DNA of 63,978 nt, the filler included, from Rhabdomonas costata (lineage: Eukaryota): assembly GCA_019059605.1 (NCBI GenBank). It is 24 parts of 24 records of this genome, joined end to end, with 100 filler letters (N's around TTAATTAATTAA, not from the genome) between each part and the next. Parts side by side here need not be neighbours in the genome. Positions count along the whole stretch, not along the records: positions 32,042 to 34,611 come from JAHMHO010002817.1; 23 more parts are not named here. One strand, given 5' to 3'. The notes beneath the pieces are model-generated. The model saw nothing but the letters and a program-made list of their open reading frames with translations, searched no databases and was not told where the DNA came from. Positions within the stretch are counted from its first letter, which is position 1; each line of letters begins with the position of its first letter. This document shows positions 8,345 to 34,611 of this stretch, in pieces. The position numbers were made by a program, and so were the translations under genes.

Positions 8345-10216
8345 GTTCGGGCACACGGGGAGTTGATCACCGGGCTGACCTTCTCTCGGGACGGGCACCA
8401 CGTGATCTCCGTCTCAGGGGACCGGTGCATCCACGTGTGGGCACTGGGTAGCCGCTTCACTGGGCTGGTATGCTCCTCTCACTAATCAGAGGGGCCTGCA
8501 TTTCCCGCACTTACTGTTGAAGCTTTTTTTTTGCGAGTGCTGCTCTGGTCTGAATGAAGTTGAAGGACCAACGTTCGCTCGTAACAGGAATTGAGCTTTT
8601 TAGGCTGTGTGGTGGAATGGTCCGGCGAGGATACGTTGCCGCAGGAGACACAGGAACAACCCAGAGGACCTCCCTGCAACACCTGAAAGCGCATCCAGAT
8701 TTCTGGGTTCTTACCTCAATCCTCTTGCGCATTGGTAGGTGAGGAGGTTTGGGCTGGCGGGTGTTGCACGCAGATGGCGGAGCGTCTTAGGGAACTTCCA
8801 CAGCTGCAGGACTCTGCGGTGCCCGCCAGTACTGGCCCTACCACAAAGGCAGGCGAGGGCCCGAGAGCTGGCGCTGCTTTCGTCCTGCCGCCTGCGGTGT
8901 CCACCGCCGCGGGGGCTGATGCAACCGGGGTGGGCCCCGATGGTGGGCACGGCACGATGGACGAGGTTGGTCGCTCCCCGACACTTGTATCCCGCACCCG
9001 AGTCCAGCGGCTGGCCCATGGGGCGTGGGCACGGTATGCTCCAGTGGGGTTTTCTGTGTTTCCCGCACATCTGGAAGACATCGACATATTCCAGAAAAAG
9101 CAACCTGATGTTAGGAGCCTCCAATGCATGGCAAACAAATACACTAACATAGTTTACAAAACAAGACTTTTTTACTCTCCCTAAACCCCTTGCAAGTCCA
9201 AAAGGTCATTTAGGTCCAAAGGACATTTCGGTGACCCTTTTTTACCGCTCACTTTAAGGTGGCACGGGCAATATAATTTACGGGGGGAGAAAGGCGTCCG
9301 AGGGCAGCTTTCAGGCGCATGGGATTGTTTGCTTGTCTTCCCTCACCTCCGTGTCGGCTTGTCAGAGAAGCCCAGGACTATGTTCTGTTTGACGAGCGGA
9401 GGCAGCGGCAGGGCAAGGGGGACTCGGATCTGGTGGTGTGCGATGTCGAGGACGAAGGTGTGCTGCAACTCGATTATCTTCCCCAGAAAGAGCCTCCCTC
9501 AAACCCTTATATGTCAATGCTTGCTTCACTGCCACGCAATACACTGTTCCCGGAGAAGTGGAGATTCTCCCCCCCCCCTTTTTGGAGACTGCTGGCAGGT
9601 TGTCCAATTCTTTACGATTGCAATAAAAACAGAAAAGAAACGAAAAATCTAGGGTTTCCGAAAATCGTAATAAAAAACCGTAAAAAGTATTCTCTCTCTT
9701 TCTTTCTTTCTTTTTTTACAAAAACGTATAAAGATTGGCCAACGATGTTGCTGCGCAAGAGAGAGAGAGAGAGCCAAGGAGAAGGGACTTTATCTTTCCC
9801 CAACCATGGCTGGTCTCACTGAGTACGTGCCGTTTCCCTGACTCAACGGTCTGTTCGAGTGCATTTTTAAGGGATGGGGCTATACTGAAGGACAACCTCG
9901 AACGGTCTTACGTTGCGCTTCGCAGTGAATACTGTGTAACCAGCAGAAGGGCTGGGGTGTGCTTGAATCGGCTTCTTAGCTTCATGTGGTTCCCCTCTTT
10001 GCTCAGCGCGCTTGGCTGGGTACTAAGCGCGGAAGTTTACACACAGATGTATGCTCGCCCACAATCTTGCAGCGACCCTCAGTCTTGCCGGCTCTGCGCA
10101 ACGCGGCGCGACGTCGGAGGAGAAGGACGGGCAGGGGAAGAGCCACTCTGTTGAGGGAGAACAGGAAGAGGACACACTGTCGGTGGACACCGACGAGGAC
10201 GCAATCTCTCGGCTTG
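8345..10216 (+). CDS. WD40 protein, WDR62/MAPKBP1-like, partial; exons 8345-8467, 8774-9033, 9366-9457, 10073-10216
   Basis: AHGELITGLTFSRDGHHVISVSGDRCIHVW resembles the last WD repeat of MAPKBP1/WDR62. The following low-complexity exons join in phase through GT-AG. Confidence 0.7.
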
Positions 10217-11423: not shown

Positions 11424-12895
11424 CAGGGATCGCACGCAGGGCCTGGATGCACTCGTCCGCCGTGGACGTGGTGTAGGCCTCCGGCACCCCACTCACCACG
11501 CCCTGCTCGCACAGCAGCTCGTACACCGCGGCGGGCTCGGCCTTGCCCGGCACCCGAACCATGCCCATCTTGCGGAACATGAACAGGTCGGCAGCGCGGT
11601 GGTACGTGTTCTCGGCCACCAGAACAACCGAGCCGAACTCCTAAGCACCCCCCCCCTCCCCTGCCGATCTTATTCCCAATTACGGAGGAGTGAGGGATTG
11701 CATTTCCTTTTTAGCTCAGGTGGCCACTTGCTTGTGCCCAAAAAAGGCGGGGGGGGGGGCAGCAGGGATGTATGGCGGTGTCTTCAGGAATCAGGCGTCA
11801 TGGGTGTCATTTTCCCTTCGCCTCTTGGGAGTCAAATGCTCAACGGTGCTCTGTGGCGCAAACGGCGCTAAACATCCGCCAAAGAGGGTTTTACCAAACC
11901 TTATCCATTTCATTGCATCGGGATATTGTCTCAGGGCGAGGATAGGTACACCCCCTTGTACTTGTGGATCCCTTTCGCTTTCATGGGAGGGGTGAACTGA
12001 ATACCATCACAGGCAACTATTGTGACCGTGGTGTCTTTTGCTACCACCGCAAGCAGAATTCGGCATGTGAATCCTGTTCCATTGATGGGTACCTAACCCC
12101 TCTTCTCTTCTCTCTTTTTTCTCCATGCTCTTCGCAGCTGTACAAAGGTGCACGTCAATACACGTCATAGAGCTGTTTCCCCGACAAGACCCATTAGCTG
12201 ACATTGGATCTGGTTCCTGAATGAGTACTATTGTTATATCGTCCAAAACACATGAATTTTCGTTTTCCTCGAGCTTGTTTTCCTTCGTGTTGAGATCCCT
12301 GGGATTTGGTCAAGGGCCCCACCGACAGAAAGAGAGAGACCCATTCCCCACCTTGTTCGCCGCTTCCAGTCGGGCCGCAAGGTTCACTCCATCCCCTAAG
12401 AACGCGATGGGCGGCGCAAGGTGTGTGATCCCAGTGAAGACGGAAACAGACGAAAGAAAAACAGCGAAGAGGAGGGATAGTAAAACCGAAAGTGCACCTC
12501 GAGGTCCCCCTCCCCAAGCACAGACACACTGCCCGCAGGAGGACTGGCAAGGAGGGAGAGCCTATTGGATGTCTACTTTCATCCATCTTTCTGGAACTCG
12601 CTTTCTGCCCTTCTTCTTTCCGTCCCCAAAATCCAAGCAAGCCGAAGAGCAGCTTTTTCGCCAGAGTGCTGCGGGGTTTCTGCCCTCTCCCAATGTGTCT
12701 TGTGTTATATGCGTGTAGGGTTTTGGTAGAAGTTCTATTCCGTTGTGGGCACGGCCGGTTTTTCGCGGATGAATGCTTGCGGGACAACAGTGAGCACATT
12801 GTGGAGATAAACACTTTGCTCTCCCGCTCGACAGCACGCAGGCACAAAAAGTACCCAGCACGGTGTAGTTCACTCGGAATTCGCAGCCGTAGTTC
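11424..12895 (-). CDS. Class III nucleotidyl (adenylate) cyclase catalytic domain, partial; exons 12895-12855, 12395-12352, 11640-11424
   Basis: Spliced product NYGCEFRVNYTVLGDGVNLAARLEAANKEFGSVVLVAENTY...FRKMGMVRVPGKAEPAAVYEL has the GD-x-VN-x-AARLE catalytic signature. All three exons have AG/GT ends in phase. Confidence 0.9.
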
Positions 12896-13742
12896 CTGGA
12901 AAAGAAAAATAAGACAAGAATCCACATCTGTCATTGCTTCTGTCATCGCTCCGGAGCGCATCGACTTTTTTTTTTGGCATTATTAGGTATTAGCTCATTT
13001 TCCTTTCTTTTTGGCACCCCCCGCACAATTGGGTTGTTCTGCATCATGGAGGAAGCGTCCAAAGTCTCTCTATCCCAACCAGCTTCTGAGATTGCATGGG
13101 GATGAAGAGAAGAACAAGGTGTGGTGCAACCGGCCATTCACTGGCAACAGACGGAAAGAAAATATATTCCAGGATAACAAAGGTTAGGTGTGCGATGACG
13201 CACTTACACTTGATGGTCATGGTTTGGCAATGCGGAAGGTTTGACGCCCNNNNNNNNNNNNNNNNNNNNNNNNNNNNNNNNNNNNNNNNNNNNTTAATTA
13301 ATTAANNNNNNNNNNNNNNNNNNNNNNNNNNNNNNNNNNNNNNNNNNNNGTTTTTGGGTGTGGAACCCCGAGGAAGTCTTTTGGGAGGAGAGGTATTACG
13401 AGGTGCTGGTCGCCCGAAACCCAGACTGGGTCCTTGTTGAACAGGTAGAGTAGCATACATGGGCCTGCAACAATGTTCAGCTGTAATTGATATCTAAGTT
13501 TTGTATTAAGTTAGAAGGTGATGATGCTGGCACACATCCTGGGGTGGGGCGACGCCGCAGCGGCATCTTTGTGCGAAAATAATGGGCGCAAGTGGCACAG
13601 GATTTTTCTGTAAAATCATCGTTCTCAATGCTCGCCTTCCATATCAACGAGGATCGTGCTTTAGTAGAGTACAAGTTTTTTCTCTCACTCAATTTTTAGC
13701 GTCAACTCCTTTCGGAGCCCACCCACGCTGGCCCTCAACCAG

Positions 13743-15190
13743 CTTCCCGTGGGCCTGCGCTGGCTCTCCGTGAGCAAGAACATACTGTCAGCAAGCATCG
13801 ACTTCACCGCGCTCTCCCCTAACCTGGTCACCCTGGATCTCAGCCACAACCTTTTCTCGGGCGTGGCCAACCTCACCGCCCTTCCCCGGAGCCTCACCGC
13901 ACTGCACTTGGACTACAACAGGTGCGGTCTCACCTATCCCGCCTCCACGTTCTCTTCGGAATCCTGTTCCCTTGAATCCTTCCTCGCGCTTTTCCTGCTT
14001 GTCACTTTTGCAGGACCCTTTAAAACACCAGTGCTCTGTGAGCAGCGAGCCGTTAGACGGCTCTGCCCTTTAGCTCCCTCTCCACCTGCCTGTTTTTGCC
14101 CGCTTCTTGCCCTCTCTCCATACACATGTACCAGGGAGATCCCGCGGGTTCGGTTTCTACCTCCCCACCTGTAATTTTTCCTGATAACATGCTCATTCGT
14201 GCAAGGTGATGTGCCATTTTTGCCTGGACCCGCGTCGCTGTGCGGCTTTTTCTTACCTCTGTTGTTCGACCCTTCACAGTTCATCTCTCACGTGCGCTCT
14301 GTCAAACACCCTTAGTGTGGCCGAAACTTGTGTTGTCCGTCAGGAAAGTTCAGTCGGGCAAGATTATGTTCGCCGTCCTTGTCCCGCTCCTCCTTCATTT
14401 GGGGTTAGTCTTAGCGTTGCTGAATCTGCATTGACTGACGGAGATGTGCATGTCTACCCCATTGCCCTCAGCTTTTCCCAGACCAACCTGGAGCTCAGGT
14501 CTCTGCCCAGCTCCTTGACCACCCTTACCGGTGCGCACAACCTCTGGGATGGAGCCTTGGACCTCAGTGCGGCGCCGGCGCTGTACACAGTGGACCTCTC
14601 GTACTGCAGGTCTTATCAAAGTTGAGTGCAAGTGCGTGAGTGACTGTGTGTGTGTGTGTCCCAGCAGCTATCCCACGGAACGGTTTCGCCACGGAACGAG
14701 ACTCCATGTAAGCGTGCCAAAGCAAATTGTCCCCATCCAGGTACCTGCTGGCCCGGGGCCAGAGTTGCCTTCAGCCTAGTGTCGAATGTAGACAAGCGTT
14801 TTAGACCGTGATATTTATTCGAGCCGACTTCGGTGCCTGACAGTGTCCGAGCCAGTGTTTACCTTTTACCCCTTAAGCACACACACACATACCCTCACCC
14901 CAATGCCCGTCGTGTCGTTCAGCACCGCCGTGAACGCACCAACAACACCAAAACAGGTGTGCAGAACTTGAAGCACAAGTACACGCCACAGCACACCGCG
15001 CCACGGCGCTTTCTGTGTGTGGTGCAAATGTATTAATTTCCCTTGATTGATTCCCTCAGATTCACCAGACTAATCCTGTCGACGGCGATTCTGCAGAGTG
15101 GTATGGGGATGACGATCAACCTGGTGGGCAACCCCTTCTCATGCCCCTTGCCCCCGGTCTCGATAGCCGTGAAGGTCAGCAGCTGCCAAG
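13743..15190 (+). CDS. Leucine-rich repeat protein, partial; exons 13743-13921, 14472-14609, 15060-15190
   Basis: LxxLxLxxN repeats (LVTLDLSHNLFSG, LPRSLTALHLDYN, LPSSLTTLTGAHN) and a C-cap GNPFSCPLP. Introns are GT-AG and in phase. Confidence 0.85.
14891..14987 (+). repeat. Interspersed repeat of about 100 bp, copy 1 (in LRR gene intron)
   Basis: Shares ACCCTCACCC.AATGCCCGTCGTGTCGT.CAGCAC, CCGTGAACGC, AAACAGGTG.GCAGAAC and AGCACAAG.ACACGCC in the same order with 63873-63976. Confidence 0.8.
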
Positions 15191-30962: not shown

Positions 30963-31649
30963 TCAGGCAGACAGGAAATCCAGCAGCCAGTTTGCCGGCA
31001 GCGTCAGCAACGGCAACGATCCTCCCGCCAGAGACAGAGGTGGTGTAGCCTCGACACCCAACCGGTCCCGAACAACTGCGGAGGGCCCCCCATCTTGCTG
31101 CTGCCCGCTCTGCCCTTCACCGGCCAAGTCCCGGGATGTGACCAGCTCCTCGTCCTCCTCGCGAAGGAGGTCACCGAGGTCCTTCTCCAAGAAATCCAGC
31201 GCTGCTCTGGCAGCCGGCCTGGGCTCCTGGGCGGTTTCTGGCTCGGCAGTGCCCAGGAGAGTGGCGATAGGGGGGAGCTGTCCCGAGGAGAGCTCGAACA
31301 GAGCCATGAGCTGGGTGACACGGGCGTGGGCCGCGGTAGGGGAGCCAAATGAGGGCATCACGGTGGGGGCAGACAGGCGAGAGTCAGCACTGCCTTTCCG
31401 GAAGGCCACGGAAGGCGTGGGGGCGGGAGCGGGGCTGTGGATTGGCACTGGGTCAAGGAGCAGGCCCCGCTGCCGCTGCCGCGCCAGGGTCTGCAGGAGG
31501 TACTTGTGCGGGGTCATCTTGGGCTTGGCTCGCATCCACGGGGTAATCGCGGTGATCCACTGCTGCAGCGAGGAGACCAACGAGGAGTCGCTGGAATTAT
31601 TGAACCTGAACCCGAGAGGGGGGTAAGGCAGTCGGGTGGTGAGGACATC
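30963..31649 (-). CDS. Hypothetical protein, long terminal exon
   Basis: 228 open GC-rich codons after a CAG acceptor, ending at TGA. Low-complexity P/A/S/E sequence with no recognisable domain. Confidence 0.65.
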   Translation of the reverse strand, partial: DVLTTRLPYPPLGFRFNNSSDSSLVSSLQQWITAITPWMRAKPKMTPHKYLLQTLARQRQRGLLLDPVPIHSPAPAPTPSVAFRKGSADSRLSAPTVMPSFGSPTAAHARVTQLMALFELSSGQLPPIATLLGTAEPETAQEPRPAARAALDFLEKDLGDLLREEDEELVTSRDLAGEGQSGQQQDGGPSAVVRDRLGVEATPPLSLAGGSLPLLTLPANWLLDFLSA

Positions 31650-32041
31650 CTGGACGTTTGCATGCTCAAGAAGAAGGCGTTGTGGGTTGTCGAGGTATTC
31701 TTCCTTTACGGGACAGTTGTGTCTGTTTGTTCGCGTGTGTGTACGCCTGTGCGATGAAAAGACGGAAAAGAAACATACACTCTCCTTCTCACACGTGAAG
31801 GAGAACAATGATGGAAAGAAACGCTGCCCCTAACCTAAGACGCGTTTTCAACCTTGAATCAACCAAGGATAGGAGCCCAGGATCACACACAGCGTACCAT
31901 AAGGTGACTGCCGTGTCGAACTGTTTCTTCAACACCCCACCNNNNNNNNNNNNNNNNNNNNNNNNNNNNNNNNNNNNNNNNNNNNTTAATTAATTAANNN
32001 NNNNNNNNNNNNNNNNNNNNNNNNNNNNNNNNNNNNNNNNN

Positions 32042-32790
32042 TGATTTTTATCTCGCAAAATTTCAAATGAAAACTTTTTATTTTCATTTTTCTTGTATGC
32101 ATGTTTTTGAATTTGTACATTCAATGACGTTTTCTCTGTCGGTTTGTATTGTACTGGACTTTCATATCTTACATTGTAAGGCAGTGGCAAAATATGCAAA
32201 TGTTTACACGAATATGTATGTGTACAACTATCATTCAAAAACAATTTACAGACCGCTGTGTATGGAATTGCTGGATATTTCGGTGTATTAAATCTATTAT
32301 GTAGTACAAGTGCTGTCAAACTATTATCTACATGAATATATTCTTTTGGTACAATACATCTATAATTTGGTTTTATCTCTACAATGAGATAAGATGGCAG
32401 TTTAATATGTTGCATCATCACATATTTTTTACATTCGTCACGTGCGATTGAAAGCAATGAAGATGTAATATGTAGTTGATTACAATGTTGTTTAGCATTA
32501 CAATTATTTTGTTGATAACTCAAACATACCGACAACGGATAAAATCGTTCTCTATTTAGTACTTCAATACATCCTTTTGTTTGTTCACATTGTGCTAGCA
32601 TATCTTCTGACATTAATACATGTTCACTATCTGTTCCATAACAAGGAACAAGAACAGTGTACATGATACGATCGATGTTATAATCATATGATTGTTCATT
32701 TGTCATTTCTGGTTTGTTTCTAAATGAACTGTAATCAGTTTCAAACGACGACATGTAATTATTCCCAGACGAAGTATTGTAACAGAACAT
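32042..32790 (-). CDS. Tandem CCCH zinc-finger protein, putative RNA binding, 3' partial
   Basis: Two C-x7-C-x5-C-x3-H fingers: CLSYQQNNCNAKQHCNQLH and CKLFLNDSCTHTYSCKHLH. The first ATG is at 32790; the TTG start in the ORF track lies inside the promoter motif. Confidence 0.8.
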
Positions 32791-32849
32791 CACTAGAAAT
32801 CGTAGTTTAGATTTTTTGTATTTGATATATATACGAATAGTTATTTTAT

Positions 32850-32857
32850 TCAATTTT
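32850..32857 (-). promoter_or_regulatory. Mimivirus-type early promoter AAAATTGA
   Basis: TCAATTTT on the + strand is an exact AAAATTGA on the - strand, 60 nt upstream of the CCCH gene ATG, a spacing typical for this motif. Confidence 0.7.
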
Positions 32858-32960
32858 TTTATATATCCTTTATATATAATATAAATATAAAATTTTTATA
32901 TATATTTATGATCATAAATGCACCTCACAATATATTTTTTTACATCATTAGATTATAGAG

Positions 32961-33299
32961 ATGTCAACGAATTTTTCTAAAACATTTATGAGTATGATTG
33001 CGACGGTGATTACAATACCGAAAGCAATCGATACATATTATAAAATAAAAACAGATCGTGAAAAACAAATAAATAATCTAATAACAGTGTCTTGTAATTT
33101 TACATATAAAACTTATATAAAACCATTAAATAGAAAACTTACAGATAATGAAAAAAAGGAAGCAATGAACATCACAAAATCATATTTTAAAAATGAATGT
33201 CCATATTTCATAAAAGATCAAAATTTAGAAAGTAGAATCGAAGAACATTTATTATTTATAAAAAATATAAGATTAAAACGATTAGACGGAATTGATTAA
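32961..33299 (+). CDS. Hypothetical 112-aa protein
   Basis: Complete ATG-TAA ORF in very AT-rich DNA, with the terminal hairpin overlapping its stop codon. Confidence 0.75.
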   Translation: MSTNFSKTFMSMIATVITIPKAIDTYYKIKTDREKQINNLITVSCNFTYKTYIKPLNRKLTDNEKKEAMNITKSYFKNECPYFIKDQNLESRIEEHLLFIKNIRLKRLDGID

Positions 33300-33333
33300 C
33301 TTTATTTAATTTAATTAAATAAAGTTAATCAAT
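33291..33333. terminator. Perfect AT-rich palindrome, Mimiviridae hairpin-rule polyadenylation/termination signal
   Basis: ATTGATTAACTTTATTTAATT (33291-33311), one T, then its exact reverse complement AATTAAATAAAGTTAATCAAT (33313-33333). Confidence 0.8.
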
Positions 33334-33354
33334 AAAAATCATGACATATAATAA

Positions 33355-34611
33355 ATGGAAATAATTCTGTATAATATACAAAAAAATACACTTGAATATG
33401 TTAATAAAAATGAAATTATGGATGAATTATATTATCAACGATTTTGTGTTCCTACAAAAGAACATGTTAATATTTGTATTCATGATATTAATACACCAAA
33501 ATCAATAAAAAATTATTTTAAAAATATTGATAAAGGAATTGATAATATTAGAACAGAAATATCAAAAATCGAAAATAAATTGCCATTATATGATGTATAC
33601 AGTAATAATTTATATTTGATTGAAAAAAATTTAATTCAATCTAAAATTATAAATGAACATTATAGATTTCCAGATGAAACTATAATTTCCATGTTAGATT
33701 ATAAATATAAAAAACTTATAGATAAACCACAATCTAAAATTTTTAAAAGACTTTTATTAATGTTATCGTTTTTAAAATATTTTAAAATTAATGTATTAAC
33801 TAAAACATTTTTTAAAATACAAAAAGAATTATCAATAAATGTATGGAAAATGATATCATCATGTAAAAAACCTTCATTTTTACCAATTTTTAGACATATT
33901 GCTCCTTATTATACAATGAATGAGATAAAAAATATGATAAAAAATTTAGATAATATAAATGACACAAATACAAAATCATTATGTGAACAAATTATAAAAA
34001 ATGATATTTCATCTAAGATTTTATTACGACATTATAAACATATTATAATAAATGGTACAACCAATTTAATACAATATTATACTTTCAATGGATGCTTTTT
34101 TATGAATAAATATTTACGAGAATCCATTGATGAAAATAATAGAAATAAACAATTAGAAAAATTTATTGTACAAATTAAAGATTTAGTAACATCTTCACCA
34201 CAATTTAATAAAAATTATATTTTTTATCGTTTTATAAAAAATGATTCACATATAAATAAATTAAAAATAAATGACATTTATGTAGAAAAAGGATTTACAA
34301 GTACAACAAGAGATCCATTTTATGAATCTGAATATTATAATTTTGGATATATTCTTTTAAAAATTAAAATACCTGAAAATAAAAAGGTGTTGCATTATGT
34401 GTAGAATCAATATCATTATTTCCAAAAGAAGAAGAAATTATATTTGCACCTAATGCATGTTTTAAATTAATAACAAAAAATAAAAATATTAAATATTATT
34501 ATAATAATATTTACTCAAAATTAAAAACAGTCTATGAATTTGTATTTGTTGGATACAAAAATCATGATTTATTTAATCAAATATTTAATAAAGATATAAT
34601 TCCCAAAAAAA
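33355..34611 (+). CDS. ADP-ribosyltransferase exoenzyme-domain protein (VIP2/C3-like R-S-E class), frameshift at 34381-34385, 3' partial
   Basis: YYTFNG..MNKYLR, FYRFI (R), KGFTSTTRD (STT), then in the -1 frame GVALCVESISLFPKEEEIIFAPNACFKLI (ExE), which stays open to the fragment end. Confidence 0.85.

Follow-up and report, generated by a model that had tools for sequence, protein, structure and literature searches.

A short AT-rich contig in the Rhabdomonas costata assembly is probably a genome fragment of an uncultured mimivirus-group giant virus

The question raised by this locus is from what kind of genome a very AT-rich contig of the Rhabdomonas costata assembly (GCA_019059605.1) derives. 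The window analysed here, a stretch of 63,978 bases, is made of 24 unconnected contigs of 2,566-2,587 bp each (~2.57 kb), joined by linkers of ~100 nt in which runs of N flank TTAATTAATTAA, a sequence that gives a stop in all frames. Adjoining contigs are not genomic neighbours, and open reading frames (ORFs) or other features that span a linker, such as the frame at 31990-32853, are artefacts of the concatenation. The AT-rich contig carries three genes, designated ORF1 to ORF3 (Table 1), the last of which encodes a protein with an ADP-ribosyltransferase (ART) domain. With a probability of roughly 0.82, this contig represents 2.57 kb from the genome of an uncultured giant virus in the mimivirus group (Imitervirales); among sampled relatives, the closest show ~45% identity in ORF3, the sole comparable protein. 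Giant virus DNA of the Imitervirales had been proposed in an original prediction made from the sequence, and the proposal is supported mainly by the relatives of ORF3, which are encoded on 94 viral contigs of the IMG/VR collection.

ORF3 has 17 metagenomic relatives with E values from 4e-71 to 3e-19, seven of which carry PF03496, the domain of ADP-ribosyltransferase exoenzymes (ADPrib_exo_Tox). Eighty of the 94 IMG/VR contigs encoding relatives were kept (L001-L080), with the ART gene near position 10001 in most of them, and pattern searches were based on a second alignment of the family (A2), the first one (A1) being too diverse. Half of these loci (40/80) are named GVMAG, and contig sizes in the other half span 16.9 kb to 1.26 Mb. 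One record of 617,453 bp (L073) matches Cafeteria roenbergensis virus in length. Two others have the lengths published for the genomes of moumouvirus (L029, 1,021,348 bp; PMC3542560) and Megavirus chilensis (L033, 1,259,197 bp; PMC6163669). Identity with ORF3 is 44% for the best locus (L001), 35% for L029, 34% for L033 and 29% for L073, and no sampled relative exceeds 45%. None of the 197 pattern matches among 185,579 bacterial and archaeal species genomes encodes a relative of ORF3, and a tblastn search with ORF3 against 50,697 phage records gave no match. The presence of ORF3 relatives on 94 viral contigs and their absence from these prokaryote genomes argue for a viral origin of the contig. 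A comparison of all three proteins, which had been recommended together with the original prediction, bears it out for ORF3, whose located relatives with context are all on viral contigs, but not for ORF1 and ORF2, which have no viral relatives.

In a quick IQ-TREE analysis of the N-terminal part of the family (up to 460 aa; 81 rows, 69 of them distinct), ORF3 falls within a clade of 27 rows with 97% SH-aLRT support. The 26 other rows of this clade all come from uncultured contigs of up to 1.15 Mb, and the sister clade holds both L029 and L033. The flanks of the ART gene were scanned with Pfam for 85 ORFs of at least 250 aa from 10 of the 80 loci, and yielded AEP_C962R, D5_N and PriCT_2 (8 each), Topoisom_bac (7), Pkinase (12) and NAD-dependent ligase (2); the ART gene of these loci lies amid genes for D5-type primase-helicases, topoisomerase IA and Ser/Thr kinases. 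PF03496 was reached in just 2 of the 85 ORFs, and two full-length relatives (795 and 762 aa) matched no Pfam family. The ART-domain proteins of ~730 aa form a family that is widespread on giant-virus contigs, and their motifs and profile matches, described below, indicate an R-S-ExE domain.

The contig also differs from its companions in composition. Its GC content is 21.9%, against 49.4-55.4% in the 23 remaining contigs, and in 300-bp intervals it reaches 32% at most, the minimum elsewhere in the window being 37%. Hand counts of 6/60 and 10/60 GC, on which the description of the fragment as very AT-rich had been based, agree with the sequence. The three packed genes that had been described are present as well, with a coding density of 91.2%, but the frame break in ORF3 and the truncation of ORF1 and ORF3 by the contig ends had been missed. 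At the composition of the contig, the probability of a stop is 9.65% per codon (one expected every 10.4 codons), and by chance, runs of 249, 112 and 349 open codons would arise with probabilities of 1e-11, 1e-5 and 4e-16, respectively. Pfam gave nothing significant for the four pieces concerned (ORF1, ORF2 and the two pieces of ORF3). Composition and coding density are both foreign to the rest of the window's contigs.

Table 1. Features of the AT-rich contig, in positions of the window
Feature	Position	Strand	Remarks
AT-rich contig, complete	32042..34611		2570 bp, 21.9% GC; artificial N/TTAATTAATTAA linkers on both sides
ORF1	32044..32790	-	at least 249 aa from ATG 32790; 3' end off the contig; CCCH zinc-finger protein
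ORF1 finger 2, C-x7-C-x5-C-x3-H	32194..32250	-	residues 181-199
ORF1 finger 1, C-x7-C-x5-C-x3-H	32470..32526	-	residues 89-107
AAAAATTGA, mimivirid early-promoter motif	32850..32858	-	59 nt upstream of the ORF1 ATG
ORF2	32961..33299	+	112 aa, orphan
Perfect hairpin with 21-bp stem	33291..33333		onset 6 nt upstream of the stop of ORF2, end 21 nt upstream of the ATG of ORF3
ORF3 piece a	33355..34404	+	349 aa and premature TAG; N-terminal domain and first part of the ART domain
Arg292 of YRF motif, the R of R-S-ExE	34228..34230	+	invariant among 40 sequences
Ser316-Thr317-Thr318, STS motif of the ART fold	34300..34308	+	Ser316 invariant
A/G homopolymer run, one-base frame slip of ORF3	34381..34388	+	pieces abut, no residue lost (IPENKK / GVALCVE)
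ORF3 piece b	34386..34610	+	75 aa in the -1 frame, without a stop up to the contig end; ARTT/ExE part
Glu-Glu-Glu, ExE catalytic motif	34428..34436	+	outer two Glu at least 90% conserved in the family

Two signals on the contig, a hairpin and a promoter octamer, had been taken in the original prediction to be of mimivirus type, a claim that holds well for the hairpin and poorly for the octamer, which taken alone is close to chance. The perfect 21-bp palindrome noticed at a stop codon has arms at 33291-33311 and 33313-33333, each of 21 nt and 100% complementary with 1 nt between them, and overlaps the TAA of ORF2 (33297-33299). The longest perfect hairpin found across 200 simulated contigs was 12 nt. 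As RNA, the hairpin folds at -18.9 kcal/mol (z = -6.83), and none of 200 shuffles was as good. In the relatives' loci, 52 of 849 stop codons have a perfect stem of at least 13 bp, against 0 of 849 mid-gene controls. We infer that the hairpin is the 3'-end processing and polyadenylation signal of the ORF2 mRNA; the hairpin rule was reportedly set out by Byrne et al. in 2009.

The octamer, AAAATTGA, is at 32857-32850 on the minus strand, where the site reads AAAAAATTGA, so that the 9-mer is also matched; it had been placed some 60 nt before an ATG, and was indeed found with a gap of 59 nt to the ATG at 32790. The probability of finding the octamer in a promoter position is 0.073, or 0.038 given the spacer's own composition, and falls to 0.016 for the 9-mer. 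Among the relatives' loci, the sense octamer occurs within 120 nt upstream of 256 of 852 ORFs, as opposed to 104 for the antisense octamer; its total in the 80 loci is 606 copies against 540 expected (1.12x), the signal emerging only in upstream regions. For the 26 loci of the window's clade, the motif precedes 105 of 260 ORFs at a median gap of 52 nt from the ATG (interquartile range 49-59 nt). The gap of 59 nt on the contig lies within this range, which supports both the motif and ATG 32790 as the start of ORF1. The ART gene itself is different: the early motif is found within 120 nt upstream of it in 0 of 67 distinct relatives, against ~30% of the ORFs in the same loci, from which it appears that this family is consistently not early. 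ORF3 of the window likewise lacks the early motif upstream.

ORF3 is interrupted by a one-base slip in a homopolymer run. Its relatives read through KIKIPxNxKGxxLCxE...FPxExEI, whereas the window has KIKIPENKK and then TAG, with GVALCVESISLFPKEEEIIF following in the -1 frame; piece b is matched in 78 of the 80 relatives' loci. Together the pieces represent ~58% of the gene, its N-terminal part, the relatives being 604-826 aa long (median 728.5). Conservation across 68 distinct relatives is at least 90% at 52 positions, 48 of which are kept in the window (the relatives' own median is 51 and minimum 45), along with all three catalytic motifs, and GC at third codon positions (GC3) is similar on either side of the break (0.077 and 0.053). 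We take the break to be an assembly error in the homopolymer or, alternatively, a very recent inactivation. In the tree, ORF3 has a long terminal branch, which leans slightly towards relaxed constraint and could equally well reflect a divergent lineage. As the ExE motif lies beyond the break, the assembled sequence would not yield a product that contains it.

Up to E = 1, the two pieces of ORF3 give no PF03496 match, and ORF3 is placed in the R-S-ExE group through relatives that carry PF03496 and through the agreement of its family profile with ARTs of solved structure. This profile hits SpvB (5.8e-7), VsdC, Lmo0066 and Vis, the YR, STT and ExE positions being aligned; Arg292, Ser316-Thr317-Thr318 and the three Glu residues of the window align with the YR, STS and EAE of SpvB, and the catalytic order is kept. 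ORF3 is therefore predicted, from motifs aligned with those of solved enzymes, to catalyse the NAD+-dependent mono-ADP-ribosylation of a protein. An AlphaFold model built with 40 sequences has a predicted local distance difference test score (pLDDT) of 87.6 and a predicted template modelling score of 0.82. Searches with this model gave 0 matches at E <= 0.001 in PDB or BFVD; the weak top matches are ART toxins and ART-domain proteins of nucleocytoplasmic large DNA viruses (NCLDVs), and cover the C-terminal part only. Residues 1 to ~200 (33355-33950) are modelled with pLDDT mostly above 90 and have no significant match in PDB or BFVD, and this N-terminal domain may be a new fold or a domain family specific to giant viruses.

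The other two genes are less informative. ORF1 has two CCCH fingers, when 0 of 20,000 shuffles gave two, and in Pfam it has no zf-CCCH match, the only hit being Torus at E = 0.47. A word-index search returned no homologue of ORF1 and the viral collection no relative; against 1.84 billion representatives there were three marginal matches (best E 9.9e-5), two of which are repetitive unrelated proteins. The finger-plus-spacer module of ORF1 is shared by P0023, one of the three (pairwise E = 9e-7). P0023/P0024, a protein of 808 aa from assembled public runs, has three CCCH fingers ~100 aa apart and is Ser/Thr/Pro-rich. GC by codon position is 0.39/0.32/0.21 in ORF1 and 0.26/0.20/0.08 in ORF3, ORF1 being the less AT-biased of the two, which would fit a more recently acquired gene. 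ORF2 has no Pfam match, no homologue in protein databases and no relative on viral contigs; its Atlas scores are at most 0.84, with low recognition.

The criteria listed for Mimiviridae are proteins that match best inside the family, trees of PolB, A32 and MCP, prevalence of AAAATTGA and 3' hairpins, and further virophages or transpovirons, a Mimiviridae-type AsnS, aminoacyl-tRNA synthetase genes and MutS7 (PMC6163669). On the contig, the most similar homologues are within the family for one of the three genes, ORF3. A hairpin is present at the only complete 3' end, that of ORF2 (1/1). The octamer is upstream of one of the three ORFs, prevalence being a statistical feature for which three genes are too few. 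The 2.57 kb hold no Mimiviridae-type AsnS, no aminoacyl-tRNA synthetase gene and no associated virophage or transpoviron.

Several observations weigh against a mimivirid origin. The contig has no core gene (MCP, PolB, A32 or MutS7), and only one of its three genes has viral relatives, neither ORF1 nor ORF2 having any in the 80 loci, the viral collection or the protein databases. The Atlas clusters nearest to ORF1 are not viral but two of Euglenozoa-labelled C3H1 proteins, each at 0.89, with a Nucleocytoviricota CCCH cluster next at 0.86; none of these scores reaches the Atlas threshold of 0.9, and they provide a lead only. The gene order of the relatives, with D5 and topoisomerase IA genes beside the ART gene, is absent from the contig, and since the flanks of the 80 loci contain no equivalent of ORF1 or ORF2, the order on the contig differs from that of the relatives. 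Only a minority of the 80 loci is classified here to order, and the branch leading to the window's ORF3 is long, at 1.21 compared with a median of 0.48. Contig-wide, the octamer occurs once against 1.41 copies expected (P(>=1) = 0.76), and in the ORF1-ORF2 spacer it is TATATA that is enriched (7 copies against 2.1 expected, P = 0.02). TATATA and TATTT are described as promoter motifs of asfarvirus type (PMC5974111). With an octamer near chance and TATATA enriched in the same spacer, promoter words alone cannot assign the fragment.

The viral origin would be the same if the contig came from a giant endogenous viral element (GEVE) that resides in the nuclear genome of the sequenced organism and is starting to decay, a reading that we hold to be possible and put forward tentatively. 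Eight GEVEs of 25-37% GC, with coding densities above 90% and lower read coverage than their flanks, have been reported from the repeat-rich genome of Euglena gracilis (~51% GC), and PolB and MCP trees assign them to the Asfuvirales (Jivaji et al. 2025, PMC12455990). The statement in the original prediction that euglenids have no well-characterised equivalent is hence outdated, even if these published elements are of another order. The contrast between our contig and the remaining ones, at 49-55% GC, is of the same kind as theirs; the GC of the contig is lower still, and its sole informative gene is mimivirid. Decay would account for the frame break of ORF3 and for its long branch, and the contig is of the same short length as those around it, when a virus replicating at high copy number would usually be expected to assemble long. 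The break is nonetheless in a homopolymer run, a typical site of assembly errors, and the gene around it has retained its conserved positions, its catalytic motifs and an equal third-position bias on both sides. There are no introns or transposon fragments on the contig, 91% of which is coding. Blastn and tblastx found nothing in common between it and the other 23 contigs, none of which has an AT-rich island, and it has no host-like flank. No physical continuity with host DNA is seen on it, both contig ends being inside viral-type ORFs; integration cannot be judged from this, as the original prediction had rightly said, since 2.57 kb cannot exclude it.

Other origins appear much less probable. 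An element of Asfuvirales type, like those of E. gracilis, is very unlikely, although those elements are rich in AT and include an outlier, CP87_12 at 25.4% GC, that possibly represents a distinct lineage (PMC12455990), and the TATATA enrichment of the spacer is of asfarvirus type (PMC5974111): the family of ORF3 is found in records of moumouvirus and Megavirus chilensis genome length, the relatives' loci carry AAAATTGA upstream of 30-40% of ORFs and hold NAD-dependent ligase and topoisomerase IA genes, the NCLDVs with ARTs in a 2022 survey were limited to mimiviruses, chloroviruses and insect iridoviruses (PMC9503650), and the GC of the contig, 21.9%, is lower than that of all eight elements as published (PMC12455990). 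We consider equally improbable a non-viral AT-rich DNA, whether organellar, from an endosymbiotic bacterium or from an AT-rich eukaryote or contaminant, with a laterally acquired ART gene. Such a source would suit the closest resemblance of ORF1, which is to eukaryotic CCCH proteins, the ultimately bacterial or phage-type nature of the ART domain, and the lack of viral relatives for ORF1 and ORF2; against it, relatives of ORF3 number 0 in the 185,579 prokaryote species genomes, every located relative with context is on a viral contig, Rfam gives 0 matches over the whole window (no tRNA, no rRNA), and the 21-bp hairpin at a stop together with the promoter spacing fits mimivirid expression. Mobile elements of mimivirids are AT-rich and employ the promoter and terminator signals of the giant virus. 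An association with virophages and transpovirons is moreover listed for Mimiviridae (PMC6163669), so that a small mobile element travelling with a mimivirid (virophage, transpoviron or polinton-like virus) could be envisaged, yet it is extremely improbable: the ORF3 relatives are on contigs of up to 1.26 Mb beside D5 primase-helicase and topoisomerase genes, a full ART gene (~2.2 kb) would take up a third of a 7-kb transpoviron, and the Pfam scan revealed no virophage hallmark gene on the contig.

Taking the contig as mimivirid, as we prefer, its ART gene can be compared with known systems. Relative to the Mimiviridae ART family, ORF3 is collinear over residues 1-349 and the 75-aa continuation, Arg292, Ser316 and Arg319 are invariant, ExE is conserved and the early motif is missing in both; the gene in the window differs in being cut at ~58%, in its one-base slip and in its neighbours. 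The bacterial R-S-ExE ARTs (SpvB, VsdC, Vis and Lmo0066; C3 and the VIP2/iota group) align with it at YR, STS and ExE, and the weak top fold matches of ORF3 belong to the same group. The giant-virus family differs from them by an additional N-terminal domain of ~200 aa, a C-terminal half of ~300 aa and its viral context. Bodo saltans virus (BsV), the sole isolated giant virus of a euglenozoan and a member of the Imitervirales, is described as having a genome of 25.3% GC, an early promoter AAAAATTGA and palindromes after ORFs (PMC5871332), and 12 ART genes are reported for it (PMC9503650). Its AT-rich genome, set against a host of ~50% GC, parallels the contrast seen in the window. The contig is not from BsV itself, as no sampled relative is more than 45% identical, and no record of the length of BsV (1,385,869 bp) is among the 80 loci.

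If the genes of the contig function as those of mimivirids do, ORF1, a CCCH protein that probably binds RNA, would be transcribed early by the viral RNA polymerase from AAAAATTGA, and the ORF2 mRNA would be ended at the 21-bp hairpin by hairpin-dependent cleavage and polyadenylation, as in mimivirus and BsV. ORF3, which would not be early, would use NAD+ to ADP-ribosylate a target protein, probably one of the host. Its product might be delivered by the virion as a late, packaged enzyme, which is a reasonable guess; NCLDV ARTs of the Alt/VIP2 type are described as related to phage ARTs packaged in the head (PMC9503650).

A more far-reaching reading, which as a whole we think unlikely, is that the sequenced organism is a euglenid or other euglenozoan, that the contig is the first trace of Imitervirales there, apart from the Asfuvirales, and that the virus captured a host-type CCCH gene (ORF1), expressed from an early promoter, with which it would interfere with the largely post-transcriptional control of its host. 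Under host capture, the GC3 of ORF1 (0.21, against 0.05-0.08 in ORF3) would mark a comparatively recent event, and the Euglenozoa-labelled C3H1 look-alikes would point in the same direction.

Taken alone, the fragment is nothing unusual as viral sequence in an assembly. Eukaryote assemblies that contain giant-virus DNA are all the same among the few routes by which the protist hosts of giant viruses can be learned, and if the assembly is that of a euglenid, a mimivirid fragment would represent a second viral order besides the Asfuvirales elements of 2025 and a second Imitervirales link for Discoba, alongside BsV. The ~730-aa ART family would be a reasonable starting point for identifying the host molecules that giant viruses ADP-ribosylate.

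Some observations concern the surroundings of the contig and of its relatives. The pattern of the window resembles a length-sorted, fragmented assembly. The other 23 contigs, ~59 kb at 49-55% GC, have just two stop-to-stop frames of at least 250 aa, at 12197-12979 and 30966-31829, both on the minus strand, without Pfam match and seemingly non-coding. These contigs look like non-coding or intron-rich eukaryotic DNA, and their GC content and scarcity of long frames are compatible with a genome like that of E. gracilis (~51% GC), without identifying it. One neighbouring contig contains, at 13668-14171 on the plus strand, an open frame of 168 codons that by eye resembles leucine-rich repeats (LRWLSVSKNIL, LSPNLVTLDLSH). 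In the flanks of the ORF3 relatives (L001-L016), a Hom_end-associated Hint domain is present in 3 of the 85 scanned ORFs (best E 5.8e-23) and an HNH_3 endonuclease domain in one; giant-virus genes of these loci house inteins or homing endonucleases.

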